This document shows, piece after piece, positions 11,512-54,276 of a stretch of DNA of 64,000 nt (positions are counted from its first letter, which is position 1; the number at the start of each line of letters is the position of its first letter). The stretch is from Catajapyx aquilonaris (lineage: Eukaryota), in NCBI GenBank assembly GCA_000934665.2, contig KZ538098.1, positions 62,001-126,000 on the forward strand. Reading direction: 5' to 3'. A program made the position numbers and the translations under genes. Under the pieces are notes generated by a model. The model worked only from the letters and a program-made list of their open reading frames with translations, ran no database searches and was not told the DNA's origin.

Positions 11512-11684
11512 CTGATGGCGACGCTTTTGGCTTTGAGGTGGTGCCAACGCTGGTTCATCTCGTCGAGTCGTCGCTGGAGCATGACTGCATCTTCCTGACT
11601 TTCCAACGAGGCCAGCAATTTGCGCCCCGTCCCAGTGAGCGAAGAGAACACATCTTTGTGGCCCTCGATCTCCGACTGCAGGTC
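11512..11684 (-). CDS. Dys: Dystrophin exon (~DMD exon 56 equivalent), 173 bp
   Basis: Acceptor ggttag|GAC, donor AG|gtaagt; DLQSEIEGHKDVFSSLTGTGRKLLASLESQEDAVMLQRRLDEMNQRWHHLKAKSVAI(R), resembling human DLQGEIEAH...DAVLLQRRLD; phases 0 and 2. Confidence 0.96.
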
Positions 11685-12295
11685 CTAACCAGACACAACG
11701 AGACAAGAACATGTGCTGTTGAGTCATACAGAATTTCAAACCGTCAAATGTGGCTATTAAGATAAATTCTGTGCAAACTTCCGACCCGTATATCAAGATG
11801 TCATCACGTCTAAACCGTTGACAACATGTGCTTTTCATTAATTTTTTCCCCCCCACGCTCACTAGTGTCATATCGTGACATCTGTGCCGTGAAAATAAAC
11901 CCTCCGCAAATGGTCGGAGCACAATGAGTATGGGTCGGGTGTAATTTCCACATTCATAAACCATTGTACCTGCTAGAAAAAGCAAGCCCGGTATTAAAAT
12001 TGCATGACCGTTATTGGCATGCAAACAAACCATTTCCGAATCGTATTTCCACGAACAGTGAAACAATCCCCGTGACCCATTGTTCGGTTTGATGTCGAAC
12101 CAGACATTAAAATCGTTGCACTATAATGCTATTCGGTCCACCCTACCAACACCCGCATATTATACGCGAACACACACCAGTTTTAAAACCAAACACCCCG
12201 CCATCAAAGGCGCTGCCGAGAACCCCCAGTCGTAATTAAACATAAATAATAAGCTCGTATAAATTGGAAAGTCTGTCTGTCCGGAGAGGCAAGCT

Positions 12296-12550
12296 AGCCA
12301 ATCATGGCTACAGAGGCTCTAGGACGAGTCGCCAACTTCTGACGTCACGTCGTCTCTGATTGGCTGGAGCAATTTTGGACTGCGTTTCTATGAAAATAGT
12401 GGCTGGCTGTGACGTCACGGTCGACTCCGATTGGCTGGAGTCAGAAGGCCTGTAACTACTCCAGCCAATCAGCGACGACGTGACGTCAGAAAATTGCGCC
12501 TCTCTTCCTCGAGGCTCTCTAATCATGGCCAATGACGTCGGGCCAATCAC
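12296..12550. repeat. Palindromic element rich in TGACGTCA and CCAAT/ATTGG motifs
   Basis: Arms 12337-12369 / 12459-12491 are 32/33 complementary; TGACGTCA at 12340, 12410 and 12481; six CCAAT/ATTGG sites. Confidence 0.75.
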
Positions 12551-12676
12551 GGAGCAACGAAGTCACCCATGAATATCGATACATGTCAAGGGAATATCGA
12601 TACAGTCATATCAAGGCAGGCCGTTTGAAAAACAAATAACGGTTTGATGCCCACAAGGTGGAGAGGTCAGATTTAC

Positions 12677-12793
12677 CTCTTGGAATCTGTCCAATGCGAC
12701 CATCAGCACGAAGTTCAAGTGTACGAAACGCGAGTCTTCGACATACTTGAACCGCACTCTCTTCCTGTACGTCGTCGTGTCGGATACCTTCAG
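12677..12793 (-). CDS. Dys: Putative alternative/cassette dystrophin exon, 117 bp (39 aa)
   Basis: Acceptor cttccctccactgtcatgtccgcag|CTG, donor GAG|gtaaat; phase 0/0, no stop; LKVSDTTTYRKRVRFKYVEDSRFVHLNFVLMVALDRFQE; 30 of 39 codons end in G/C like the true exons. Confidence 0.55.
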
Positions 12794-15700
12794 CTGCGGA
12801 CATGACAGTGGAGGGAAGCCACTACAGACCACAGCAAAAGGCTAGCTCATCTCCGACCCCCCCAATATACACCCCTTGTGCTGGTGGGGGAAGCTCCGGA
12901 CATCTGGACAGCCCGGATCAATGGTCATACACACACAGACCCGGGTTACTATACACTCTATATATAGAGTTTCCACGTCATCCATCTGCGGACCAATTAA
13001 CTCGTTTTCCCCGAGCTACACAAGACTTTGATGCAGCTGGCTCCGCTTCCACGCCCACTATCCCTCCTCACGCCAGAGATAATTTACGGTCCTTCACACC
13101 GGAAGGCTCTCAAAATTGGGCTGGTCCNCCCCCCCCCCCTTCCATACCCTTCTCTCTCTTTGGATTGATTGCACCCGCGTTTGCTCTCACTTGCGCTTAC
13201 AAAAGGCGGGCTCTCACCAACTCTCCAGATTTTCCAGCCAGATATCCATCAGCCACCTTGGTCCAACTTGGCCTGAATTTTTAGCTAATAGCAAAGCAGG
13301 CGGGGACCTGCTTTAAGTTATTTGTGCTGAGAGGAAACCTGAGGGGGTGGGTGGGATGTGGGGAGGAAAAGCAAGATCGATATAACTGTTGTTTCTCCGT
13401 CTTGTGCTGGGCTGAGCCAACTGCAGCCATCCGGCAGAGCAAGAATCAGAATGTAAGTTGGCTTGCAGAGAGAGAGAGAGAGGCAGAGAGAAAGCTTAAA
13501 CCATAATTCGAAAGAGACACAAATGGGGAAGGCAGGAAGCTGTAACATGGAGAGAGAGAAAAATATATTCCGGAAACCGCCAGCAATGAATATACAGGCA
13601 AACCGCCTTAATCCCTTCCGAGTTTTGGCCAGCCGCAGCTTAAATGGAAAGGGGTCCTCAAGAGCATCGGACGGATTTTGGGGGAAGAGAGAGCCCACAA
13701 CAGCAGGAATGGCCCCCCTCTTCTTGATGGAGAGGATTTCATTATGCAGTGCGGCATAAGTGCTTCACTTTTTATTACTACGATTACTTCAGGTCGGAAC
13801 AGCCCAGGATAAAAGCAGAGGGTTGTATGAACTAAAAAAAATGTTGCATTCAGTTGCACGTATTGTTGACTCAATGATTAAAAGCCTGATGGTGCAAGAT
13901 GATGCAGGCGTTCAGGGGCAGGGCCGGAAACTAATACCTTGCCTGTTTGCATGGTTCAAAATTTCCATGACAATGAATCCAGCATCTTTTATGAGGCCCT
14001 AACTATTCTCGTGCCATAATACTACCCATTGATTAATCCATTAACATTCAGTTTGCTAATTAGTGCATTTTCATTTTCAGTCATATATATCGAGAGAGAG
14101 AGAGCGGCTCCCCTCAAAATTGGGGTGGAAAATTTCACTTTTACAACATTTACGGTTCCATGTTCATCCAGCAGCCCTCCCAACATCCCTCACGACCGTT
14201 CAGAAACAGATCAGAGTTTAAAAAGGGCCTTTATAAATCTTCCTTCGAGCCCCCCCTTTTCCCCATCCAGGATTATACATTCCGCCATTTTATACTCCAA
14301 ATAGGTTTGCTTTTGAAAGAAAAAGGGGAAGGAGCCCTATAATTTTGCAAGAATTGTTGCCATAAGAGCATCGGGGTGTTCCCTCGACAAATACAATTTT
14401 CAGAATCGCAATGTCAATGGAAGGGGGGGACCCTCATGCTCCTTTTTGGAAGCTGCCGACTCGATTCCTCCTAGCTTAACGTCATCAAAGCGAATCCCCA
14501 GAAAATGAAGTTAAGCCATCTCCTCATCCTCAAATAAAAAGGAGAAGCGCAAATAAAAACAAAAAAAAAAGGATTTGCGAAAAAAAAAAAGAAAAATCAC
14601 AATGTACACAGATTTTTCTTTCTCGTTTCATGTTACATTAGAGGACAACAGGACTGCTGCTTAGTTCATAGGGACGTGGACCACCCTGTATAATGCGCAT
14701 CGGGGTCTAATAAATTGCTTTCTCTGAGACGAGCTGGAGGCTAAGCAGAGACGGACAAAACAAGCCGGATGTACAAGATGCTAGACACATCCTGGAAATA
14801 AGGGGGGGAGAGAGAGAGACCTAGGATTCAATAAACCCCCTCCCCCGTTCGTTCTGTATGTAGTCAGGCCGTTTTATTGAGGGGAAGGGAAGGGTAGGGA
14901 GGAGGGGTTTTTGGGGGGGAGGCCAGAGCTGCGCCGCTCCATATTACTGAACTTGAAAGCTGCTGTCAAATGCAAATTCGAAGCGCGTGCTGGGCTAGAC
15001 ACGGAATAAACCGGCCGAGTTATCCGCCTTCATTTGTTTCTGGAGGAGAGACGAGATCCTTTTCCAACCCCCCCTCCCTCCACCCCCGAAGCTCAGAGAG
15101 AGAGAGAGAGAAAACTATTACATGGCAGCCAATGGGAAATAGTACGAGCCCTTGCGCGACTCCGGGAGAGAAAAGCTAAAGAATTGCTTCACATCGAAGC
15201 CAGATGGGTCCCTTCCTTCACGGATATGCTGCCTCTTCCCGGAGGACCATTTATCAAAATCACTTTGGCCCTGCTGCTGCCAGAGGAATATTACAACTGC
15301 ATCGCGTCATCGATACAGATCCATCCAGCAGCCCCCCCTCTGCATTATGGAGATAAAGGGAAAGGCACAGCGGACGTTGCAAACTGGACAACTGCGTCCA
15401 ATTAGGACGGCACGATTCGATTAGCTCGGGTTGGAAGCGAGAAAAGGAAGAAGAAGAAGAAAAAAAGTTTCTATACGGACAGTCCCAAGGAAAGTGCCGG
15501 ATTTAACGAGCACCCTTTCTTCACCCTGATTCATTTACCAGGGCTGGACATGGACACTCGCTGGCAAAGGAGAATGAACTTCTGAGCAACGATCACTTCA
15601 TGAAGATAAGTAGCATTATGTCGTAGCTTACGACACTTCCATCACCCTCTGCAGCAGCACACCTAGTCGAAAGTTTCGCATGCAAAAATTTCACCCCTTT

Positions 15701-36413: not shown

Positions 36414-36827
36414 TAAGCATCATATCAGTCACCAATGATACACTTTATTTTCTGTATGAATATTCGTGGTTTTCCAGTTTCCAGTTTCGATCAAAAAACA
36501 TTGCGTCAAAAATTAGAACCTCAAATAATCCGTTTCCCCCAAATTCCTGGGGGGGTCAGCAGCCCAAAACCCAGAGTGTCCTCTCATCGATTCTCCCCCC
36601 AACATTTTCCATTTTCACAAGCCCTCCCCTCCTTCATTACCGAAGTTATAAGCCTTGGGCACTTGTGAAAGGAGATTTCCCAGAGTAGCAATGATTTAAT
36701 TGGCAGGCCGACCATTATTCCTCCCCCTCTCCCCCCTCCCAAAAAAAACGCCCTTCCCCAAAAAAGGATTAAAGGGTTAAGAACTGTATAGGCAAATTTT
36801 CATTTAATGCGATTCGTCACTGCTCAC

Positions 36828-37640
36828 CTGAGCGAACCTCTCCTGGGAATCAAAGATCTCGAAAAAGAGTGAGACCTTGTCGTCAGGCAGAAGAGAGAGG
36901 CTGAATCCATTCTTGGGCTTGACCCGGGGCAGAGTCGAGGGCAGGCTGGTGGAGTGGGGCAGTTCTCGAAGAGGTGGGTTAGGGTGCAAGGGGGTGGTGG
37001 GTGTGGACTTGGCCCCGCCTCCTTTCACCTTGGGTATTCCGCTCAGAGACACCTTGGGAGGGTTGGCCCTCGGGGGCGGGTTGGGGGCGAGGGATGTGCT
37101 ACTGCTGGAGGTGTGCTGCCCCGGGGTGGTTGGCCCCGAGGAGGAAGGGGTCTGCACCCAGGGTGTGTTCGGGGTCGAGTTGCTGTGCGGGAAGTGGTTG
37201 TTGAGAGGAACGGTGAGGGAGAGGCGGCGGGCGCCCTGGGATGGGGCGGCCCCTGGGGTTGTGGCCTGACTCGGGGCAGGGGTGGGGCGGGTGGCGGCAT
37301 ACAGCTGGTAGTCTGAGGCCGACGACACCGGGAAGGGTCTGGAAGGGTTGGGTGCTGGTGGGGTCCTCGCCCAGGTGTTGGGAGGGGGTCGCCAGTAGGC
37401 CTGTGGGGGCGGCCCCGGGGCGGGAGGCCTAAGGGCCGTGGGCCTTGTCGGAGTGGAAGTGATCGGCGCGTTGGTGGCATGCTGACCGCCAGGGGCAGGG
37501 GCTCGAGGGGCGGCATTTAAGGCGAGTCTGTTGAAGGATTCAGCCGGGATCTGGTCAGGAACGTATGTGTACTTGTACTGATGCTGCTGGGGCTGGTACT
37601 GCTGCTGGTTGGGTGTGCTAGTGCGCCGGGGGTAGTTCAT
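36828..37640 (-). CDS. Dys: Putative alternative first coding exon of an internal-promoter dystrophin isoform (Pro/Ser/Thr-rich N-terminus, 271 aa)
   Basis: Longest ORF in the window, on the dystrophin strand. First in-frame ATG is at 37640 (MNYPRRTS...), with an in-frame TGA upstream at 37737-37739. It ends ...DKVSLFFEIFDSQERFAQ at donor CAG|gtgagc, phase 0, compatible with the phase-0 acceptors at 11684 and 12793. Confidence 0.75.
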
Positions 37641-38000
37641 CAGGGGTGATGCCAAGAGCCAAACACGGCTTGGAATTACGGATCGGGTCACGACCCTGCT
37701 GCATCCGACACACACATCGCACTCGCACTTTTCACTTCAAGTACTCCTCACTCCACTGTATCCAGTACAAGAGACTGCACCCCCCTGTGTGTGTACCCCT
37801 TCCGTGCGGAAGCCCAGCCCTGACTGCCAAAAGCCGCCTTTTGGATGGCTTCCCAACGCGCACGCCGCTCTCTGCTGCTGATGCTGCTGCCCGCCGACGC
37901 TCGCCGGCGCCCAAGACGCAGCTCCACTCCACTCCCTCCCTCCTTCCCCTCCACAAAATCCCTCACTTTCAAGCCCTCGCCACATTACCACCACCCACCT
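37641..38000 (-). promoter_or_regulatory. Putative 5' UTR / internal promoter region of the short isoform, with two upstream ATGs
   Basis: GC-rich stretch directly upstream of ATG 37640. uORFs at 37717-37688 (MCVSDAAGS*) and 37704-37618. TSS not determinable; the upper boundary is approximate. Confidence 0.4.
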
Positions 38001-41000
38001 TAAACGGGTACCAATCTAATTTGTGGGCCCAAGGACCTTGTCCTCCACATCAGTTTACACTTCACCTGCCTGCCCTTCCCTCGGGGAGGATCGTCGCACC
38101 AGACTACAAGGTGCACACAAAATCAGATACACTCTCACACCCTTGTACACTCCAGACGCAGAGAAGGTACTTAGTAAGTGACAAAATGGCTTACTCCACC
38201 GGGTAATAGTGCAGTAACGGCTCAACGTTATTTTATTTGGAAGGGGGCTAACAGCAGTCACTTTACTTGGAAGAGCGCTAATATAGCACTTGGTAGAGAT
38301 CTAATAGCAGTCCTTACTCGCTCACTAGCAGCAGTTATTTTACTAATAACACTCTAGTAGCACGTACTGACTTGAACATACTTTCGATGCGATTCCCTGA
38401 AGGAACGCTTTACTGGCCGACAGGGAGAAAGAAAAAGACCAACACACTGTAACTTATGAACAGATAATCCAGCCCCATTTTCCCGGTTGAATAACTACAG
38501 TTTTTCCCTTCTTTTTTTTCGGTGCACTTCACTCGCGAGTAGCTTCCGGGTTTCGCGTTTTCAGACCCATTACCTTGATGGAATCTGTGGGCCATTCCCG
38601 GACGCAAGGACTGTGTGCTGCTGCCTCTCCTTGGGAGTATCAATTCTTCAAGACGGGAGAGAGTCCCCCCCCCTTCCCTTCCCAAACATATACACCCGGA
38701 CGTGAGTGGAAATCCGGAGTGCCACTAGTGTCGTACAACTTGTTACCCCGGGTTTTTAGGAGACATTCGTTAATCAAGGAGTGGCATTGAAATGGGAACT
38801 CTTCGTCTCCCCCCCCCCCCCCCACCNAGGCACGTGTCGATATAACCCTTCCCCGGAATTTGGAAATGTGGTCCTCCGTAATCCGGAGCATGCTGCCAAT
38901 ACCACTGCCGGGTCCGAGGTCCACCCTCCCCAATTTATGCCTCCCATATATTGGACACAATAAGGTAAACTGTGCCGAGGCCTCACCATTAAACCCGCAT
39001 CGCAAATATCCGCAGCTGTCTATAACTCCTCCCCGATCCGGACAACAATACACTACGGGCACCCGCAAACTAACCGCATGATTGCAACGACATTTCAGAA
39101 ACTTCGCCATAACCAACGATTAGCACAATTTTGTTCAAAAAAACGAGCGTGCTGCACAATTAATTTCCACAATTGCGCAAGAATCAATGCGAGCATATAA
39201 CACAGAAAATTCGTCCTACCTGATGCACATATGGCATACCAGTTGTCGAACCAATCTTCCCAAAAGCTGATGGAGAAAACTATAAAGTCTGGGGGAGGGT
39301 GATAATCCCTATTTATGATTCATTGGAATCAACTTCCATTTCATGCACCGGTAATTCACCTCCTGAAACGGTTAAACCTCGATTCCGTTCTCCCTCATGC
39401 CGATATCTACGCCCTTTCATCTCAACGGGTACGAGGAAATAGGGCTTCAAAAAAAAAAAAAAAAAGGTTGGGGGTAAAGTGAAGAGGAATTCTTTGACAT
39501 CAAACCTGTATTAAAAATCGAGAATAAAATATTTCGCAACAAACGTTTGAAAAACTGCGGCCACACCTTCGCACTATAAAAAAGTAGAAATTGTCAAGTT
39601 TTGCAATGTAACATCTACAATCTGATTACAAAAAAATTTTACGCGGATCTTCACATATTTTTACGCTACTCCACCCTTCTCATTAATTTCGAAATCTCAG
39701 TCAAATTTTAGGGGGAGTCGTTGTAATTGCAATTTTGAACTCGGATTTTCCGGGAAAAGAATCCCGGGCAGGCAACGTGACCCAGAACCGGGAAGGAAAT
39801 TAATTACCCGTGTCTCAAGCACTCACTTGTCGACTATAGTAAATAACATTAACTAGTCACAGGGTCCATTTTGTATGCCGGTTGCAAAATTAGGCGGGTT
39901 CACTAGAAGGAAAGAGAGAGAGAAAGAAGTCCTTACTACTTAAGCTTTCGAGTCGCATCTCTCCTTTTTTTTTACCTTCTCAGTCAGCATCGGTAAGAAA
40001 GTTTCACAACTTGACGAACCGTTAATTGAATCGCTCCGTAAAACGTATCCCAAGGTGCACGTCGGACTAATGACTCGACGACCCTCTCTTATACCCGCCT
40101 GAAAGAAGACAAACTCGACTGTTTAAACCCCCAGTGGTAACAAATTGTCCTAAAAAACCTAATGTACTGTACATATGTCAGCAACATGTAAAGAGCATCG
40201 GACAAAAAAGCTTGTTATTTTTCAAGCCGGGAAAAGTACATAGGAGAGAACGAAAACAGTGCAGAGTAATGATTCAGAACATTTCTGGCCAGCTAATTAA
40301 ACCAGGTCCCGCATTGAAGCCCTCCCCACCTTGTAATAACACGAGTGCCATTTTGAATCTGGTGAGTGCATCACATGCAGCCCCACCATTTTCCTGGTCC
40401 AGATTCTATCCACCTGCGTGCCGCAGCCTCTTATCTCCTTCCCAGATAATTTCCCTCCCTCTCTATACTACTCTCTCGCAATTTTTTTTTTGTTTCGATC
40501 CATTCGAGAGGCTGCCTGTCAATTTTCAATTTTCGCTACACTTCCTCCCTCCCTCCTCCATCCCCTCCTTTTCATTTCCGTTTCCCTCCCACCATTAAAA
40601 TCGGAGGGGTTGCAACCATATTCTGCAGGAGAGAACGCACCTCGGGATTGCAAAGGAGGCGGTTTTCGGGCCACTGATTCCGCTCCATTTGCCGGATAAT
40701 TCGCCAAAAAAAAGGGGGGGGGGGGAGCCAAAAGTTGCGGTTTTGCGAATGAAAAGCGCCTGGAAAGTGCGGAGTCCCGCATGACAAGAGAGGCGCTTGG
40801 GTTGCCTGACCGACAGGATGAAGAATGGCCTTGATGAAACGGAATATATTTTCACGGAATTGTTGCAACACCATCATGAGAAGTTACGTAACTGTTGTAA
40901 TGAGGAGCATTTGGGGTAAGTGAAATAGCTGACGTCACAACCGGTATATGTCAAGCTTGATGGCGATTAGTGTTGGAAACAGGTCCTGGTTGCGGTTGTG

Positions 41001-41370
41001 CCAATTAACCCCCCAACGGTCACAATTACCCCGGTTTTCCTCCGCATTTTGGACCGGAGGAATTCGGATGGGTAGGTTGCAAAACCTTGCGGATAGGGAG
41101 GAAAGGCTTTTGGGAGGGGATAGTGTGATGCTGGAAAGCGAGAAGGGTTTGTGCTCTAGCTAGGGCAGGTCGAAGAGTGTGAAATATTCATGGGTCCGGG
41201 GGCGGAACAGGAGGTGAGGCAGTCAAACGGTGCTTGTAACTTTAATTGTCTGGCGTCTTGTCGCTCCGGTTGACATTTACAAGGGGAGGCAGCCCGGCGG
41301 TGGGGCGTGGTTTTGCAGCGCCTGCTCTTCTGGCGGGTGGGGCTCAAAATTGAAATTTAAAAAAACTACC

Positions 41371-42030
41371 TGCTATTTCTAAAGTAGCAGTTAATAGCAA
41401 TCACTGTTACTTAACGGCTTTTCAGTCGCAGTGCTATTTTCGGCCAACAGTAAAGTAGCAGTTAATCGCTGTTATTGGACCCCAGCTTTTTCATGGGCAG
41501 TGCTATTTTCGGCTCCAGTGAAGCAGCAGTAATCAACAGTGACTGTCGCTGAACTACTTTTCCGATCACAGTAGACTATAATTTCGGGCTCATCAAAGTA
41601 GCAGTTATTAGCAATTGCTGTTATTGAACCCCAGCTTTTTCATGGGTGCTATTTTCGGCTCTAGTACAGTAGCAGCGATCAACAACTTTTTCGATCGCAG
41701 TGCTATTTTCGGCCCACAGTAAGTAGCAGTTAATACCAAGCGCTGTTATTGTACAGCAGCTTTTTCATGAGCAGTGCTATTTTCGGCTCCAGTACAGTAG
41801 CAGTGATCAACAATGGCTGTCGCTAAACAACTTTTTCGATCACAGTACTATTTTCGACCTCATTAAAGTAGCAGTTATTAGCAATTGCTGTTATTGAACC
41901 CCAGCTTTTTCATGGGCAGTGCTATTTTCGGCCCACAGTAAGTAGCACTTAATAGCAAGCGTTTTTAGTGTACAACAGCTTTTTTTTCAGTCGCAATGCT
42001 ATTTTCGGCCTGCAGCTCATGGAAAGTGCT
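41371..42030. repeat. Degenerate tandem array, about 10 monomers of ~70 bp, with higher-order structure
   Basis: Core gtgctattttcggc...agtagcagtta recurs at about 41371, 41432, 41501, 41577, 41647, 41701, 41775, 41846, 41920 and 41997; 41468-41646 closely resembles 41742-41916. Confidence 0.9.
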
Positions 42031-42236
42031 GACAATGTGTTCTGTGAATGGGAATAATTGTGGGTGCTGGCTGTGAGACCCCCCCCCCCCTTTCCCTCCT
42101 CCCGGTAATTATAGCAATGCGGGTATGGAGATCGATAGGCGTTGTTGTCTTCCGGGGGAGGGCCGGGTGTGAATATGGCGGCGGATCTGGCCACAAGGCG
42201 TGGAATTTTGGCGTCGAGGCGAAAGTTGGTTGAATG

Positions 42237-42240
<4 letters not shown>

Positions 42241-42266
<26 letters not shown>
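42241..42266. repeat. (GA)13 microsatellite
   Basis: Read directly from sequence. Confidence 0.95.
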
Positions 42267-42270
<4 letters not shown>

Positions 42271-43377
42271 CCGATCTATTCGGTTTTCATGCAGGCAGCA
42301 ACCCTTTTCCTGGCGGAATAAATCAGCTGGATGCTTAGTCTGCCCCCCCTGACGGCTGGGGAGGGAGAGGGCTTAGGCCTCTCTTTGCAAAAGCTGGCGG
42401 ACACTTATATTGCCCAGATTTGGAAGGGAGTTATGTAGGGACAGGAAGGCGGCGGCGGGTGAAGAGCCGACAAAATTGGGACGTCATTGGAGCCGAACGA
42501 AAAACGCTGCTCAACTCCACTGATGGCTGCAGCAGGGCTTTTTTCGACCAGATAAACAAATCGAGAAAAGATTAGGGAAAGCTCTTTTTTTAGGGGGTGA
42601 GAGCTGGGTCAAAAAACGTCGACAGGTAAAGAGCGAAAAGCGGCACCGCGGGCTTGGAGCCTGATTTAAAATGTAACGAAATCGATCTCCTCATAAAACC
42701 CAAGCTGCTGAAACCCTAATGCTTTTGTGACCCAGGTACTACGCATGACTAAATGTGTTGGACAACTGCAAAGGCCAATTAACAAATTAACTCACGGAGT
42801 TATTGGAAATAAGCAGCTTCGGTCGGTTCGGTGGGCGGAGAAGTTCCTATCTCCTACTTGTAAAAGAGCAGTTAATCAGTAGCCGTTAATAGCAATCACT
42901 GCTTTTCTCAGTGTTCGTGTGGGTTTTCTCATGATTGTGCCCAGGCTATTCTAACAAACTGCTACGTGGTTGGAAAACGCGATCCCTAATAAACAGTCAA
43001 AGCAAGCCACATCTGACGCCTCTTGTAGTATAAGCCACACTATCCGTTCGGAAACAAGCGCTGCCATAACCGCCGCCCCCTACCCAGAATTTAATAGAAT
43101 TTTCCATGGCCTGGGAGGCGAATCATGAATACTAGGCGGTATCTTTTAAAAGTAGCAATTATCCGCAGAATGTTGGGTCTTGGGGAGCCCTCCTGGGGCA
43201 AGCAAGAACAAGCATGCATGCTGCACTTGGCGTTAATGACAAGCTGCGGCGAAAAGGAGTCTTGGCGGCAAACTTCATAAATTATTTACATACGATTACA
43301 GGAAAGGAAAGGGAAGGAAGGAAGCCGGATTATCCTGGAAAAGGAAAGAGGGGGGTGGATGGGAAGGAGGGGGGGGG

Positions 43378-43400
43378 NNNNNNNNNNNNNNNNNNNNNNN
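43378..43400. other. Assembly gap (23 N)
   Basis: Run of N next to a poly-G tract; single Ns also at 4011, 13128, 27029, 38827 and 52280. Confidence 0.99.
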
Positions 43401-46400
43401 GGATAGGAGTTTTGGGATTCGTCGGAGCGTGAGTTTCGTGATTTTCTGCCCCGGAGAATGCTCGAATGTCGCCCGCCTGTGTTTCTGCGACGTATCTATC
43501 GCAAAAACCCTCTCCCTCTCCCCATCCCTCCACCCGCCCACACCACACTTGCGGATATTAAAACCCACATTTCATGGGCTGATACATTCCATCTGGGACA
43601 AGACTCCATCGCTCCATTCCTTTTCACGCCGACTGCTATATCCTCCGGAACCAGGCACCAGACTCCAGGACAGGTCTCCGTCCAAAAAAAAGGGGGGGGG
43701 GGTGCAATTTTGAGTGGGGGGAGAAGAAGGAATTTTCCAAGACTGCTATTTCAAGTGCCATATTCAGCAGAGCAGAAAATTTCCGGAGAATGCCTTTCGA
43801 CCGTTTATTGGTCATTTTCCTTTGCCAGAAGCTTGCAAATACTGGAATCAACCTGTTAAAAATGTACTAAGCAAAATTTGAACCAAACAAACTGGTGGTG
43901 TCAAAAACTTTGGGAACACTAGAGTAACACCGACTCATTAAAACTTCATGGCTATCACTGCCATTCACCTACAACATGAAACAGAAACCAATGTCAACAA
44001 CAACGAGCAATAACAAAAAATAATGAGGCATCACCAGTTAATTACCTGAACTCATTATCAAGCCATTTCAACACTTTACATTTCAGCATTTTTCTAGCCA
44101 AGCCTTTGCGCCGCAATTTTCTGAGCCTGACAATATGACCACGTTCCCAGAGAGATATAAAAAGAAGTGTCGATTTGAGGGCAGGAGGGTGGTGGAAAAG
44201 TGAGTAATTTTGTGGGTGGGTCCTAACGAGTCCGCGGCCGCGTCCGAAAAGCCCCCGGAGTTTGATGGCTGGCCTGGAATAGCCCGCATGGACGTCCGCA
44301 GGGGCCGCTGCAGCTTCCCAAGTGATTTTCCGCTTCGGCCATCCTCACCTCTTTTGTGCGCCACCACCCGAGGATTTCAGGCCAGAGGACAAAGGAGGAC
44401 TCAGGTTAATCCCCCCTCCCTCCCTTTTCCACCCTCCATCCACGTCTTTTGGCGTCCCGACGCCTGCCTTGAGGGGGAGGGTTGGAGGACAGAGGGGGCA
44501 CCCAACAAAGTCACTGGCTTAATCCGACAATTAAAGCGGACATTTCGCAAGTATGGTGGATAGACGGATGGGGGCGCTAGGACCTAGGGTGTCGCTCGAA
44601 AACGCGAATAGTTTCGCAAACTCGCAAGCGGCCCCAACCAGGAATTTGCACAAATGCCGATGCCCCCCCTTTCCATGTTGTTGAACCACCCCCACTGTTC
44701 TCCGCCAAACCAAACTGCTGTAAAACAACACGCCGTAAATGGCACTTACTCCGCCCTCGCTCCATAATGTGAGTGATGACTTTACTCCCCAGCAGCACTA
44801 AAAAAAATTATTCAATAGTTCAGCTCCTCTCTTTTTTAGCGTCCCATTGCGAAAATGAGATGTGTTTGTATGAATTCCAACACTCCCGACATATAGACTT
44901 GGCGACCAGTAAAATTGCACACTGGGGAACCATAGAGGAGGGTTTTTTAATTTAATCGAGGAAGTTTTCATTTCAGAGAACGCTGGAGGAAGCCTGGGTT
45001 CCCCGCGGGGGAATCTCCGGAAGGAACGGATCAGATCAGAAATCTGAGGGATACGAATTTAATCCTAAGGAGTGGGTGGAGATTGCGTTGCTCTCGACAA
45101 AACAACTCCCCTAATAACAAAATCGCAATGTCTGCCCACGCACATTGGGAGGAGAAAACTGCTACTGGAACAGATTTACAGTCCTGCAGTCTGATAACTT
45201 ACCCCTTGGGGACTGAGTGGCAAAGTTACGCGATATCTTCAGTTGATAAAAATCACACATTAGCTTGATGGTAGCTCCAACTGCTATCTGCTAAACTGCT
45301 ACATGGACCAGAAACTAAAGTGCACACGTCTCGAGAGCCTGTAAATGGCAACAGTCAATGGTAGTGTTACGTTACTGCAACGCATTCAGTCATTCCGCCC
45401 CCGCCCTATTCGCAACAATGTGCATCGTGCAATTGTGAGGGACAGAATGGGGGTCCATAATTTCAACCTGACACGATCCCTTTCGCTCCAGGATTTCGCT
45501 AATGCCTGATGGATACAAAGGGAAGCAGAGTCGTTTGTAAGGAGCCTTAAGCTTCCTTTATAATCTAATGGAAAAGCTCTTTCTCTCTCTCACTCTGCAG
45601 CTTTAAAACACTTCAGTCCCATCCCTCAAAAAAAGAAAAAAACTCCCCCTCCTACTCTTTCAACAAACTCAACATCGATTCTTACTCCATCTCGATTATT
45701 CTTGACCCTTAAGAGTAGGCCCGTACAAATTTCCCTTCCTCTTAATCATTTCACCTTGCAAGTTTGCTTGCGGGTAGAGAGAGCCCGGAACGCCTCATTC
45801 TTCTCCATCCTCCCCCACCCGGATAAGCGCATAACAAATATACGACCCGAGTGGAGAAGTTGTCAAGGGGAGGGTTTAATCCCCAAGTTACCTCCTGCAG
45901 CACACTCCAATTTAAATAATATAAACACTGCCTCCTATTGGCACAGACGTTGACATCCGATATCACTTATCATCGCTTTAAAAAAAAAAACTCTGGACTC
46001 GGTTTACATGGCGTCATAATTTAAAATCTGGTTAATATGCATACTGCAGCCTGATTTCATTAAGCCTGCGGGGTCCTCCCCCGCCGATTTGGCGAGCTGT
46101 TCACACACTCGTTCACTTTTCGCCAGCAAAATTTTTTTAAGGAGGGAGAAATCGTGACTCGAAAAGAGTTTAAACGTTGCGCTAAAGCGGCTTGATGATT
46201 TCATTTAAGCAAAAGGATGCTGGCCCAACAACAGCGCTTCTGTGTGTATATGTAAAGCCATGCAGAAAATATACCGCAGCAGAGAGGGTAGTGGGGGAGT
46301 AAAAAAATTAACATGCTACACTATCCATGGTGACACTAGGCACGCATACATGTCAGGAAAATAGAGGGGGTACTGTACTACATGGCCCGCATCCCCCAGT

Positions 46401-49400
46401 GGTGCGATCCGGTGTTAGACCTTCCTTTATTGCATCAAATTCATATTTAAACCGGGCCGAGTAATTAAAAATGGCAGTGCAAAAGTTGGGACCTGCGCCG
46501 CATTCCTGCAGGGACATTCCTGAAGAAATATTTTTTACAAAACGGCTTGCCAATTATAATAATAGGCGGGTTAAAATTAAATGTTATAAAGAACGTCAAC
46601 GATATATTTCTGGCACTAGTCCTTTTTTTAAATAAATAAAAAAAAACGAACATGCATTGGTTGAACCCAAGCATAGCTCCAAAATTAAAGTATGATCACA
46701 AATAATGCTGCTGTCAAATTTTGACAAGAACGTACAAACTTAAAATGACACATATTATTTTAATATTTTAATTTGTAAGGCCTGTCATTTATGCCATCAA
46801 CAATCTCACCCCTTCATTTTGAAAAACTACAATTTTGGAACACGTTCTCAAAAAGTGTCATCAGGCATTGTTGCAACTCTTTTTCCCCCCCACAATTTCT
46901 TCCCCCAAAAAAGGCTTTTTTTGGCCATCCCATAAAATAAGTGGCAAGCAATATTCCAGCAGAGTCCAGCAATCTGTCCGGCGTCCCAGAATTTAGCGGC
47001 CAAGATAGATCATAATAAGAATATGATATCGCCACGTCCTTCGCACGAATTCATATCGCAAAAATGGGGTCCACGTCCCCCCTCCACTCTCCTTTTACCA
47101 GCCAAAAAAGTATAAAAAAAGGGGGGGGGGGAAGTAAATTATGTGCGGAAGAGGAAAATTGATCTGGGCAATGGAAGTTTCATAAAGGAAGGAAGGAATT
47201 TACAGCCAGACGTTTTTTTTTTTTTGCTGATTTTTTTTGTGTGCAAAAGGTTGGAGAGGGTGGGGGTGGAGTGTCCGAGGGAAATGGACCAAGTCGAGGA
47301 CCAGCTGTGCGAGAAGGGCAGCATCAAAGTCCGATTGAGAGAGACCATATCGATTATAGGTCCCCCCCCTCTCTCTCTGGAAGCTTTTTTTTATATCAGA
47401 AAAAAATTCGGGGGGCGACGGCGACGCCATCTGGAAGCCAAGAGCGTGCCCTATGCTAATCGTCCCGTAATTAGGCAATTGTCGCCCTCGCAGACAGCCA
47501 TTTACAAGAACTAATTAACCCAGGGGGTGTAGTGGGGGGACGAGCACTTCCCCAAAAAAAAGAGGGCAAGAAAAGCGGGCGTACGTCACGCGAAAACTCT
47601 TCATTACAACGTTTCAGGCAGCCAGCAACTCGTCTTGAAACATGACCAAACCTCACACCAACCTCATTTGTCACCCAAACCAACAGCCTCATTTGTCTGG
47701 GGGGAAGCCGGGAGGCAACGGCTGTTACGTGTGTGCGTGTGTGTGTCATACATGCAACAATACCGAGGCCCCACACATGGGTTTACCAAATGGGACGCTT
47801 TCAGCAGTCACAAGCGGGACAAGCGTTGGATATTAGTTGCATTTTTAAAGCTACTAATCAAGCCTGCAGGTCATTAGTTTAGGCCAGGTTGGAACAACAG
47901 GCAATGAACTTTACGGTTGTATATACAAGCTCGACGTGCGAGTTTCTGCAAATATTACATACGGTGTATATAAAAGTGAAATCTGAATCATCATGTACAT
48001 ATAAAAATCCGTTAATTATTACGAAAGAAATCAAAAATTCAGGCGGCAATGTTGTCTCGGCAGCCGGTTTGATAAGAGGATGAAAAATGCAGCAGCCACA
48101 GACCACCCTGTATACATGCATTATCCCTCGATGCCAGTCCTCTTCTGAGGTTAATTGGGGGCCGGATTAAATGTAATGAAACGGTTTCGTGATTGAGAAT
48201 TAGCACCCTTGTTGTTTCCATTTGTCACCCCGCAAGGCCCTCAGGATGGATACCACCTTTGGGAAATCCCGATTTAAACTCATTTGCCTCCCACTCACTC
48301 ACAGTAGAGTTGAGAGGGGAAAAAAATAGCACGCAATTTCCAGTGTTGCCGACTATAAACCAATACGCACTTTTTTTTTAAAAAAAAAACGAGTGTTACA
48401 TCCAAGCATTAGCCAGCCAGCAAACCCCACAAAAGACATGGTCGCGTCCGATTTAATTTTCATCCGGGAACCATGCGTTTCACCGGATAATACGAGCGCC
48501 ACCGGAAGCGCCAAAAGCCGGCCATTTATTGGGGAGGTGTCCCGCCCTGGTGAAAAACAGTTGTCATACGAATGAGCTCATATACATGCGGGGTGTACAC
48601 AGCACATGTTGCCAGGGGAAAAAAAGGCCCAACATATTTGCCTCTAATAGGATATACACCAAACGGCCCAACTTTTGTCGCTCTAAAGAGTCTCAATTTT
48701 TCGGGTGAGTGAGGCCTTTTTTTATACAGGCTCCTATTAGGCCCCCCCTCCCATGCTCGTACCGACCAGTTCAAAATTCGGGAGCCCACTCAATCAATAA
48801 CTTTTCAGCGGGAGGCTGGGAAATACCTCCACTACGAACAGGAGTCTGGACCGACAGATAAACCCGCGTTACATCAAAAGCAATCTACTGAAATGTACTA
48901 TAAAAGTCAAAGAAAAAAGTGTAGGCCAAACAGTCGAATATTAGTAATGATATTAATTTGTTGGCGGTTCTGTTATGTACTTTCAACCGGTTTGATTAAA
49001 CTGACCCGATTTTTTTTTTTTTAGGGCTGCCAAAATTCACGCGAGTTTGAACACGACACACAGCAGTTTCCCCCCAGAAATCGATTACAATTGGCACCAC
49101 CCACCCATGTCCACACATCCCCCCCGAAAATAAACCGCAGACTATTAAAGCACATAATTCGCGGCCAATTCAAAACCCATCCCTCTTGGCCAGACGACAA
49201 CTTAAAATTCCAGCATGTACACACCAGCCATTAGTCATCGGATCGGAGCTCAATAGCACCTCGTTTCAATCCAATTGCAGGGAGGTCGAGTAATTCCAAA
49301 TTAATGGGGGGAGAGGATAAAAACACATTAGGGTTGATACAATTATGCGGCAGGTTTTGAAGCGGAAGGTTGCCCAAAATTCAAGGTACATAGTCTTTCC

Positions 49401-50087
49401 TACATATTATATAAAAAGGAGAGTCTGTGAGGGGGGAAATGGCGGCGGGGAAACGGCGTGCTCAATTACTGCGATGATTGCCCAATTAGTCCCTCTGCAG
49501 CCCTTCCCCCCCTCCCCTTTTTATAAGTCGTTAATGACCGGCAATATGTGCCACCCCACCTCATTCCCATACCCTCCACAGACTCGCACAATGTACTTAT
49601 CAGACCCCGGGTTCGCGTGCCCGGAAATATTCCCCTCCCTCCCCAAAAAAAGTTCCGATCAGATTTGGCCCCCAGATTTATTAGAAAAGTTTTTTGCATC
49701 ACCCTATACCCAGCAACTCAGCAATGATCCGGTTGTGTCATGATAAAATTATTGTGGGCAGCCATCCTACCAAACGCGCGTATGATTACAATGATAGGCG
49801 GGGTCCAGATGCGGATGCTGAGCTTGATCCCCCAGCAGTGTGTGTTTGAAAATTCTGGTCCAGTACATATCTGTGACTGGGAGCATTAACTGCCGGCTTC
49901 ACTTCCAATTAAAATGATTCGATTGAGGACATGAAATAAATTCATTTCATTAGAGGGGAACAGAGAGGGCCTGTCTGCTGCTTGCTTCCCCCTTTTCCAA
50001 TGAGAGTTCTCCAGGATTAATTAAGCAGCCGTTGTATTAGGAGGTGCATAAGGAAGAAGACAAAAAGCGGCTATATGTCTGCCTCTG

Positions 50088-50127
50088 AGCAAAAAAGCCG
50101 TATCTGCCAAGTTACGGCTTTTTTGCT
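50088..50127. repeat. Perfect 15-bp hairpin with 10-nt loop
   Basis: agcaaaaaagccgta-tctgccaagt-tacggcttttttgct. Confidence 0.75.
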
Positions 50128-53100
50128 TAAGAACCGTTCAAATTGTATATGTATTTTTTTCAGTTTTCATTATTTGTAGAATTGCGAGATTATAGCCTTC
50201 ATAGGGCCACCTCCTGAGGGAGGATGGAAGATGTTGGGTGGTGCCTTTCCATCCACGACCTCTTTTCATCAGCAGGCTTTGTGCTGGCTGGCTACGCGCC
50301 GTCAGCAGAGGAAATTAAGCCATCCTTCCCTCCACTGCCAGACTCCGCATCTTCAATGTTATCTGGCGTAAGGCAACCCAACCTAGCAACCACCCTCGAA
50401 GAATAGAAAGCCCCCCCCTCCCCCCCCCAGATAGTTGCGTTTTTAACCCCCCAACGCGACACTACACTGGAGCTGGCAGTGGCCAACGCACAGCCGGGAA
50501 GGATTACTCCAAAAAAGTGCAATATTTTTTTTATTACGTACAACCCAACGAAATCCGCAGCATTGATTCGGTCATTACAAAAAAAAACGCGAATTAGTCC
50601 GCAATGAATATTGCATTATCCCTAGGAAGGATCAACTGGGATTGTGGGCCCCTAAGACACACATTTTATGCCGGAATACGCCTGTTTGTCCGCGGTGAGT
50701 CATCAGTGGTGCACCATCTGTGTGAGACACACGAATGGGGTCCTTGGTATGGGATTTGGCGTACACAAGTAGCTCAAAACCATAATACATGCAAACAACT
50801 TTTCAGCACCAAAATATCATTCCGCCATAAATTATCGCGGGTTTAAAAAGTCACTCTCAAATTGACGGGGGGAAAGGGGGTGTGGTCTAAAAAGGCACAT
50901 TCCGACTCCTGCCTGACCAGTGTGACGTCAGCAGACCGGTGCACCTGCTTTATTTGGCGGGCTTTCGAATCGAAAGCTCGCCAAGTAAAGCAGGTGAGCA
51001 AGTAAAGCAGGTGGTTGGTAATTGGTATGGTCGCCAACAAAGCAAACAAAGCAGCCCGGGTGCGTTCCTGCCTCTGCACCGATCTATTTGGCCACTGTGA
51101 CGTCAGAGGGCAGTACGATACTGTATAATTAATATGATCTTAGACCAATCATATCTCGAAAACTAATGCGTATTTATTCAAACAATTTTTTTTAATGAGC
51201 ACGATTTTCTACATGGGTTTGCAAAATGTAGCCTATAGGACACCCTCATTGTATTGAAGGCTATGTGACACACTGTATTTACCAGAAACGATGCTCATGG
51301 GGGCCCGAGAACAGAGCGGTATCGAATCGGACGGAATTCCAAATGTTGGGTCTAGAATGGAAAGGGGGGGATTGGAGGCTGCCAACAATGGAGGAGCCAA
51401 ACTCCACCTGCACAAAAGAGGGCCTCAGACCCTCATGAATACGGAAAGCTTACAACTCCGGAGACAGTGAGATGGTGGGGGTTCCCTTTTCTGACTTCGC
51501 ACCTGCACAATGGCCCCCTCAATCCCCACCCTCGTTACCTCTTTGTTGTCCAACGTCAACACTCCACCACCACCTCAAAAAAAAAAATACAACGAAAAAT
51601 GAGTGATAATAAATGTCCCCGAGGGGTTGGCCCCCGCCACTTTTCTTCCCACCCTTTAAATGAGTTCTCTTATTCAAATCGCTGCTTAATGAGCAGTCTC
51701 TTCGGGACAACCCCCCGCCACCGCCATGTTTGTCATAATTATGCATATTTTCTTTCTTCATTATGGTAATGGGCGCCTGGTATAATCAGTTTAGTACCGT
51801 GTTAGCATCGGATCCTGTGTTTTTTTTATACGCTCCTAAATACTCATTTTTCTCTAATTGTTGCGGGGCTCCTACGTGTATTGCGAGCCATTACGCAAAT
51901 ATCCAATCTCGAGGTTTAGAGGTTTGTTAACCCCTTTGCAGTCGCCCCAGAGGGTACTCAAATAATTTTTTTTACAGTTCTTAATTTGCGCTATAATGTC
52001 TTCTTTTTTTCCCCTCCCCCTCAGAATTTCTTTACTACTTGCTTTAGAGGTCGGGAGTGTGCCACGTGCCATATTTCCCATCCTCTTCAAAAGGGGGCGG
52101 GCACAGATGTTGGTCCAAAACCAGACTAATTAACTGCCTGAGGAATCGACCCCCGAGAAAGTACGACACGGCTTTACTTTCAAAACGGAGGCACAAACCC
52201 GGGCATTATTTATTTATTCATCTCCCGCATTAGCTTCTTGATCGTGTATTCCTGGAAGGAAGTTTCAAAACTTCCTCCCNCCCCTCACATAGAAACTACT
52301 GAAGAGGGGGGTAAATTCATTTGGACAAGTTCCTGCGGATTTCTCCTTTCGGCAGCAGCAACTTGTAACATAATTGACCGAAATTAGGCGTAGGAATCGA
52401 TCCGGACCCCCCTACATTTTTTTATACAGTATGTACTGTACTATATAGAAAGGGACCAGGCACCAGCAGCAGACAAAATAATCGTGCTGCCAATGGCAAC
52501 AGCGCCCAGTCATAAATTTGATCCGCTCTTTTGTGTCCCCGGAACCCACTAAAAGCCAACTGGAGGACTCTAGTACATTTTCCCAGCCCGGGGGCTTGCT
52601 GCTGCAGCCTCTTGAATAAACACAACTTGGTCCAACCCCATCACATGCCCAACGTGCATAAAAAGCCACTGCAATAATCGCCTTAAAGTTGGGCAATTTA
52701 TTCCGGGGGGTCGTTAGTACTGCTGGGAAAAGAGCGATCGCCGCTAAACTGCTATTTTCCATTTTGTAGAAGAAGAAAAAAAAAACTGAGCGAAGATGTT
52801 ACGACATAATTCATGCAAGCAGGAAGGAAAATGGAAGGGGGAGGGGGAGAGGATATATCAATTTAGCAGCGCAATCAGGAAACTCCATTACATCTCCCTC
52901 CAGGAGCTTCAATAACTTTCCCTAATGACATTTCAACGCCTGGAATCCTAGAGTCTTCCCCCCGTCCCAATTATTGTGGCCCAAGGTTCGCAACATAGAT
53001 CGATCCGTCCCCGATATATCTGGTCCACTTGTGCTGACCCGCTCGTAAAAACTGCACAGATAAACTGCTGCAAATTTGCAAAATGGCGTCTGTCAGCTTT

Positions 53101-54086
53101 CACCCCCCTTTCCCCCCCTGGATTTTAATGAAATACGGGGACCGGGGAGGGAAATGGAAGGTCATTCACCACATCTCACTTCCGACTCTTTTCCTAGACA
53201 AAATGAGAAAGCGAGAGAAAAGACATGGCTGCCGGTTCGATTTAATATCCAGCAAACTTTTCGAGTGACGTATAGTGGATATCACCAGATGGCAGAAGGA
53301 AAAATATATATAATTGAAAGGAGGGGGTTGACAGACTGAAAATTCCGGTCTCCCCCCCTTTTACTCGGGCCGCTTATGACCTTATCAAATTTTGTGAGGG
53401 GCGCATCACAGCTTTTATGGTCCCGCTTAATTTCGATAATTAGTGTATAATACGTGCCAGGTAGCCTCATCAATCCGTAATGCAGTATGAACCATCCCGC
53501 GAAAATTACCAGCTGACTATTTTATAGACGGAGATGCCTGCACCAGTTTATTTTTTGTGCTGAACAAAGGCAATCTCTTCTGTACAAAACCGCTGCACTT
53601 GATGACACTGCTTTACGAGTTCAACAGCAATCCCTTCGCCAGATGGCTCATGTAAGAGGAATGAAGCATAAAAATAATATCACTCGACACAGGTTATGAC
53701 AATGGCTTTCCAACAACCCCTTCTCCATTACATTCCGCCCCCCTTTGTCTGCTTCCCGCCTTCCCAAAACAGCACTCCTGCCATCTACCGCCCGTATCCA
53801 GAACTTGCTCAGAATCTCTCGGAAAGCTCGCGCCCTTAAGCGGCCGCCTCTGGAAACTTCCGAGAAAATTTTTGCTCGTCCAAATATTTTTTTGGGGTCT
53901 CTCAGGGCAATTCGTCATTCCGACATGCAAATCCTCCATTAAGCCGCATTAGCCGCGGTCTCAGTGCATTAAACCACATCCAGGCTGAGGTTTTGCCCCA
54001 AAATGTCCTCCGAAAATTGGAGCACAAAAAAGGGGGGGGATTGGCACACGCGAGGTTCGCAGAATTTATTTGTTTATGGTCCTTAC

Positions 54087-54276
54087 CTTGAGGCGTTGTA
54101 GGGGCTTTCGCATGGCATTTTGGTCTCGGGCTGGTCCCAATCGGTCCAGCTCGTTCTCCATACTCTCTGCGCTGGACTCTACCTCGGACAACCAGGCCAG
54201 GAACTTGTCCAGGCTCTTGTCGAAGTGCTGAAGGGAGTTCATGGCCGAGTGCAAGCACTTGCCACGACCCACAATG
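54087..54276 (-). CDS. Dys: Dystrophin exon (~DMD exon 55 equivalent), 190 bp
   Basis: Acceptor tttcag|C, donor AAG|gtaagg; IVGRGKCLHSAMNSLQHFDKSLDKFLAWLSEVESSAESMENELDRLGPARDQNAMRKPLQRLK; phases 2 and 0. Confidence 0.95.

Follow-up and report, generated by a model that had tools for sequence, protein, structure and literature searches.

A probable first coding exon of a short, Dp205-type dystrophin isoform within a 42.4-kb dystrophin intron of Catajapyx aquilonaris

The window, meaning the whole stretch of 64,000 nucleotides of contig KZ538098.1 from Catajapyx aquilonaris that was analysed, contains part of a dystrophin gene on the minus strand, the exons of which were mapped by tblastn of five insect dystrophins. 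On the 5' side these are 62459-62247, 57451-57272 and approximately 54276-54087, and on the 3' side they run from 11684-11512 to 1078-821; the window does not reach the 3' end of the gene. The window exons match residues 213-929 of the dystrophin-like isoform X3 of the termite Zootermopsis nevadensis (P0024, 1154 aa), in which Pfam finds two spectrin stretches and WW, EF-hand_2, EF-hand_3 and ZZ domains. Termite P0024 also gives the best identity of the gene to any fetched protein (74% over ~840 aligned residues), which compares by the same method with 77% between termite and mayfly and 85% between termite and bee; the shared downstream exons are 69-74% identical to non-dipteran insect isoforms. 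The constitutive exon at 54087-54276 (...HFDKSLDKFLAWLSE...QRLK), placed by tblastn and sequence, ends in a phase-0 donor, and is separated by an intron of 42.4 kb from the acceptor exon at 11512-11684 (DLQSEIEGHKDV..., hereafter the DLQSEIE exon), which sequence and protein matches identify as common to all isoforms and which opens at 11684, after ttag, with a whole codon (GAC CTG CAG TCG...).

Inside this intron, directly upstream of the DLQSEIE exon and downstream of the constitutive exon of the type ...FLAWLSE...LK, lies an open reading frame of 271 codons (36828-37640, minus strand), delimited by its ORF ends, by a profile of its conserved tail and by alignments of homologous N-termini, and read here as the coding part of an alternative 5' exon. 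It runs from an ATG at 37640-37638 to a CAG at 36830-36828, followed by a splice donor, GTGAGC, in phase 0 (36822-36827, minus strand), which is recognized both in the sequence and in the homologue alignments; since the exon at 11684 begins on a whole codon, a junction with this donor is in phase 0. The first-pass annotation had described an 813-bp frame from ATG 37640 to CAG|gtgagc, on the dystrophin strand and in phase with the DLQSEIE exon, and its coordinates are all correct. Its in-frame stop about 100 nt upstream is a TGA at 37737-37739 (minus strand), 96 nt 5' of the ATG, which closes the frame upstream; the stop-to-stop frame comprises 310 codons (37736-36807, minus strand), and a TAA at 36806-36804 (minus strand), 7 codons beyond the donor, closes it downstream if the donor is ignored.

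The start codon and N-terminal MNYPRR (37623-37640, minus strand) are provided by the first in-frame ATG after the TGA, and this beginning resembles those of the termite and psyllid models, both of which have M-x4-PRR. The context of the ATG is poor, with C at -3, and two further ATGs lie upstream in other frames (minus strand), one at 37717 that opens 9 codons and one at 37704 that opens 28 codons and overlaps the main start, both of which would affect translation if the transcription start site were 5' of them; the leader may hence be short, or a non-coding exon may lie further upstream. Such an upstream exon, non-coding or with a very short coding part, might be spliced into the 96-nt gap between TGA and ATG, in which case the isoform would be the same, its promoter would be elsewhere in the intron and the ORF would not belong to the first exon. 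An acceptor just before the ATG would avoid both upstream ATGs and the weak start context, AG dinucleotides are present in the gap, and in some insect homologues the unique N-terminus is far longer (482-927 aa). Against this, the candidate acceptors, read by eye, have weak pyrimidine tracts, and the two AG candidates 5' of the ATG would not fit the phase of the constitutive donor at 54087 (phase 0), in agreement with the earlier remark that there is no convincing acceptor; tblastn with 12 homologous N-termini detects no further exon at 37740-54000 (E < 0.05); and two insect models begin at the equivalent M-x4-PRR. We consider this arrangement rather unlikely, and prefer to read the ORF as part of the first exon. 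The GC-rich 5' flank (37641-38050, minus strand; GC ~0.6) is presumed from its composition to hold the 5' UTR and core promoter; inspection of the flank by eye for core-promoter motifs yielded nothing convincing, and for that reason no start site is claimed.

The 271 residues contain 55 prolines, 12 PxxP and 11 SP/TP motifs, and the unique N-terminus as a whole is 20% Pro, 11% Ser and 10% Thr. No Pfam family, and no actin-binding domain, was matched in the ORF, nor any Pfam family in five other frames, on either strand, that overlap or flank it. Within the window, GC reaches 0.6 or more in the region 36800-38050 alone; the CpG observed/expected ratio of this region, 0.5-0.7, lies below the median of the window (0.77), and a CpG-island reading was rejected on account of this low ratio. 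Long frames are common in GC-rich DNA, so that the length of the ORF by itself is weak evidence, being only modestly unusual: of 1000 dinucleotide shuffles of 36800-38050, 11 contained an open stretch of 310 codons or more in one or other of the six frames, and the ~930-nt segment of the ORF was open in its own frame in 9 of 2000 shuffles. Runs of N beside poly-G or poly-C at ~3950, 27010, 38850 and 43300-43330 mark intronic assembly gaps, none of which falls in the exon.

Searches with the ORF itself were empty. phmmer against 1.84 billion representatives gave no match to the whole ORF at E <= 0.001, and a word search of proteins of 476-2000 aa gave none at E <= 0.01 among 7915 candidates, so that outside some 40 motif residues the sequence is without detectable conservation; a word search with residues 212-271 alone gave none at E <= 10 among 46 candidates; a match of 30 residues cannot reach significance in 5.8 billion sequences. 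Homologues were instead collected with the 57-residue DLQSEIE exon, which matched 126 proteins among longer proteins at E <= 0.001; 120 are listed, the named ones all from insects, with 68-88% identity. Among these 120, three classes of sequence precede DLQSEIE: a constitutive ...FLAWLSE...LK (class 1); a tail of the form PRNGF..DDK.SLF.EI.D.QERF.Q (class 2), present in 23 of the 120; and ...EDARFIHLNF.LLAE..HFEK (class 3), in 17 proteins among the matches listed. The class 2 tail adjoins DLQSEIE directly in 22 of its 23 proteins, the exception being P0060 from Megalopta genalis, which has eight extra residues.

Over its final ~29 residues (KNGF...DDKVSLFFEIFDSQERFAQ), the ORF matches the segment that stands directly before DLQSEIE in insect dystrophins. 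This conserved tail, KNGFSLSLLPDDKVSLFFEIFDSQERFAQ (aa 243-271; 36828-36914, minus strand), follows the pattern P-R/K-N-G-F ... D-D-K/R-x-x-L-F-x-E/D-I-x-D-x-Q-E/D-R/K-F/L-x-Q/K. A profile made of 15 non-redundant insect tails and run on the full set of six-frame ORFs in the window (2167 ORFs, 99,592 aa) matched the ORF at 36828-37640 alone (E 8e-12, 41.4 bits); the last matched residue is the one that precedes the donor. By tblastn, each of the 12 class 2 N-termini used aligned with the 3' end of the ORF, at E values from 4e-8 to 5e-3, and 11 of the 12 alignments end exactly at 36828; the junction is placed at residue 212 of P0024, 254 of P0059 and 482 of P0061, each of which aligns to 36828 while the next residue aligns to 11684. 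An alternative junction of the first-pass annotation, from 36828 to 12793, is open in frame; it is seen in none of the 23 homologues.

These comparisons bear on two other explanations of the frame. The first, a frame open by chance or the decayed remnant of an exon whose expression has ceased, would be in keeping with the empty whole-ORF searches, with the readiness of GC-rich DNA to yield long frames (frames of 157 aa and 147 aa overlap the ORF) and with the ~1% of shuffles that reach 310 codons. We hold it to be very unlikely, given a tail profile match of such significance, whose end coincides with an in-phase consensus donor, an order of motifs common to six insects (see below), 271 intact codons with exon-like GC3 (0.75, against 0.59-0.87 in the neighbouring dystrophin exons), and the finding that no repeat family within 30-45 kb includes the exon region. 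The second takes the frame, which runs on for 7 codons beyond the donor before it meets a stop, as a separate gene nested in the intron or as a product of intron retention, namely a Pro-rich protein of 278 aa unrelated to dystrophin. Its probability is judged slighter still: similarity stops at the donor in nearly all of the alignments and the homologues go on into the exon at 11684, the conserved tail was found solely within dystrophin proteins in the fetched set, and no Pfam family is matched. The homology is decisive, and confirms at the level of sequence that the ORF is a genuine and conserved coding exon.

Two inner motifs were recognized from the non-dipteran homologues, SDYQL (aa 109-113; 37302-37316, minus strand) and RRLSL (aa 138-142; 37215-37229, minus strand), the latter being a putative site of the basophilic-kinase type. 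The first-pass annotation had not recognized the N-terminus, whereas the tail and these two motifs are common to annotated insect isoforms. The order SDYQL, RRLSL, tail is found in all six non-dipteran homologues with long N-termini (P0024, P0059, P0060, P0061, P0065 and P0093), and neither motif was found by pattern in the 16 dipteran homologues. With patterns that were defined after viewing an alignment that included the query ORF, looser forms of SDYQL and RRLSL gave 0 and 1 matches, respectively, in the 59,371 residues that follow DLQSEIE across all the proteins fetched and 1 and 2 matches in the ORF set of the window (99,592 aa), and both motifs in order arose in none of 200,000 shuffles of residues 1-240. 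A profile of the SDYQL block alone is weak (E 0.078), and with a profile of the RRLSL block alone the ORF is absent from the matches at E < 3. A basic motif, K/R-R-P-H/Y-S-I-A, recurs in the N-termini of P0059, P0093, P0079 and P0060; none was seen in the window exon.

Fly proteins with the class 2 tail are 1839-1925 aa long (for example P0112, P0108 and P0102), with 856-921 unique residues, and are presumably Dp205, given their size and two-repeat architecture. In Drosophila, Dp186 has four spectrin repeats, Dp205 two and Dp117 none, the N-terminus of Dp205 is unique, and in embryos Dp205 occurs in pericardial cells, the ventral nerve cord and visceral mesoderm (PMC2840664); size and these published repeat numbers are the grounds for equating the class 2 fly proteins with Dp205. 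Other fly proteins, of 1656-1700 aa and starting with MTAKPPPP, have a Dp186-like start, and in these the constitutive exon (...FLAFLSETE...FK) precedes DLQSEIE. From the sequence comparisons, a short dystrophin isoform of the same type as Drosophila Dp205 is likely, with the ORF as its first coding exon.

The first-pass annotation had named Dp186 as the fly analogue. Dp186 is likewise a short form with an internal promoter and a unique Pro-rich start, features that would suit a counterpart of the exon described here; it differs in starting further upstream in the rod, in keeping the constitutive exon, not the tail, before DLQSEIE, and in having four repeats and not two (PMC2840664). That the exon is the counterpart of Dp186 is accordingly of negligible probability, and it is Dp205 that fits.

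Drosophila Dp205 likewise has a unique N-terminal exon in the intron before the DLQSEIE exon, a tail (PRNGF..DDR.RLFIDIIDSQDRLSQ) that adjoins DLQSEIE, and a low-complexity N-terminus followed by two spectrin repeats and WW, EF and ZZ domains. It differs from the isoform proposed here in the length of its unique part (856-921 aa versus 271), in being without SDYQL and RRLSL by pattern, and in a tail identity of 43-47%. Further parallels are found among predicted isoforms of non-dipteran insects, namely the Zootermopsis nevadensis X3 protein already mentioned, Macrosteles quadrilineatus X2 (P0059), Megalopta genalis X6 (P0060) and proteins of Cloeon dipterum (P0061) and Diaphorina citri (P0093), which share Ser/Thr/Pro-rich unique N-termini (212-683 aa), the SDYQL-RRLSL-tail order and the DLQSEIE junction, as well as, in two of them, the M-x4-PRR start. 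In comparison with these insects, the exon here has a 3-residue insertion before DDK and a higher proline content (20% versus 6-15%), and is without an AIQQLL-type helix and an RPSPTFHG motif. In P0065 (Microctonus), residues 105-305 match the window at 62459-54039, ahead of the Dp205-type N-terminus; with constitutive spectrin exons strung before that N-terminus, P0065 is probably a merged gene model.

Vertebrate and sea-urchin forms are comparable as well. Dp116, G-utrophin (Up113), DRP2 and sea-urchin SuDp98 would resemble the isoform proposed here in having an internal promoter or first exon in the orthologous intron, joined to the same downstream exon, and in being short forms without the actin-binding domain (PMC1790709, PMC5664101). 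Dp205 and SuDp98 arise in the intron orthologous to that of the Dp116/G-utrophin promoter, and a promoter in this intron is regarded as ancient (PMC1790709). Exon S1 of Dp116 is located in intron 55 and joined to exon 56; it encodes 10 (or 24) residues, and the unique part of G-utrophin consists of 48, against 271 here (PMC5664101). The Dp116 peptide, as printed there, bears no resemblance by eye to the exon described here (PMC5664101). The earlier placement of the intron as the equivalent of DMD intron 55 probably holds, by virtue of the orthology reported in PMC1790709 together with the Dp205-type assignment, and the proposal of a short isoform without an actin-binding domain and with a disordered Pro-rich N-terminus is supported on comparative evidence.

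Transcription of the Dp205-type isoform would start inside the 42.4-kb intron between 54087 and 11684, and its first coding exon would contribute 271 unique residues, with the donor after 36828 spliced in phase 0 to 11684. Neither the actin-binding domain nor the greater part of the rod would be present in the product, which would retain the final pair of spectrin repeats together with WW, EF-hand and ZZ domains, known as the dystroglycan-binding part of dystrophin. By analogy with P0024, some 940 aa would follow the 271 unique residues, for a predicted size of about 130-140 kDa. The unique part, predicted to be disordered, bears the N-terminal PRR, SDYQL and RRLSL, which may serve as docking or phosphorylation sites, and the conserved tail would extend the first retained helix. 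An AlphaFold2 model of the termite protein P0024, taken as a proxy and built on a 36-sequence alignment, is poor overall (mean pLDDT 56, pTM 0.38), for which reason it was used for N-terminal disorder and tail helicity only. In this model residues 1-174 have no secondary structure (pLDDT ~30), which, with the PxxP and SP/TP counts above, bears out the earlier description of a disordered N-terminus rich in PxxP, TP and SP; and a helix at residues 194-226 runs from the tail into DLQSEIE (pLDDT 52-59). The tail is thus probably helical and continuous with the DLQSEIE helix.

A broader proposal, which we put forward tentatively and consider somewhat less probable than its contrary, is that the N-terminus is a conserved regulatory module of an ancient isoform transcribed from the promoter of the intron-55 equivalent: a disordered segment with a fixed series of motifs (M-x-PRR, SDYQL, RRLSL) and an end helix, DDKVSLFxEIxDxQERF, that would cap the truncated spectrin repeat. 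The gene here is more distant from that of the termite than the mayfly gene is, so that such a module, if real, would predate the winged insects sampled. The isoform class is already known from fruit flies and is annotated in many insects, and the motif series would be a modest addition to it; none of the titles listed by searches of the open literature for Dp205 concerns the conservation of its N-terminus, and the series may therefore be unreported. SDYQL, RRLSL and the helical tail may offer handles on the function of isoforms of the Dp205/Dp116 class, which reviews describe as poorly understood. The exon also supports the view, already in the literature, of an ancient origin for the promoter in the orthologue of DMD intron 55, and would extend the Dp205-type N-terminal exon to an organism whose dystrophin is at most 74% identical to any fetched insect protein.

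Besides adding a short-isoform 5' exon to the dystrophin annotation, the analysis indicates that two or more alternative 5' exons lie in the large intron. The second, of 39 codons and phase 0-0 (...VEDSRFVHLNFVLMVALDRFQE; 12677-12793, minus strand), was identified with a homologue profile and by tblastn with P0049, and is bounded by an acceptor, ccgcag|, and a donor, |gtaaat. It is the sole match of a profile of 14 homologues (E 1.1e-6), and corresponds to the sequence that precedes DLQSEIE in 17 insect proteins, mostly lepidopteran ones of 1105-1188 aa, among the matches listed; no fly protein among the matches listed has sequence of this type, and a motif-pattern search for an upstream partner exon found none.

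Between this second exon and the DLQSEIE exon, seven CCAAT/ATTGG boxes and three full CRE palindromes (TGACGTCA, at 12340, 12410 and 12481, spaced 70-71 nt apart) cluster at 12263-12547; CRE sites number 7 in the window against 0.54 expected, and Tandem Repeats Finder reports no tandem array in 11700-13000. Since some insect models start right at DLQSEIE, the cluster may act as a promoter or enhancer of an even shorter form. A direct-repeat array lies in the intron at 41380-42030, 4 kb upstream of the 271-codon exon, and consists of up to 9 copies of units of ~71-75 nt with 62-95% identity.
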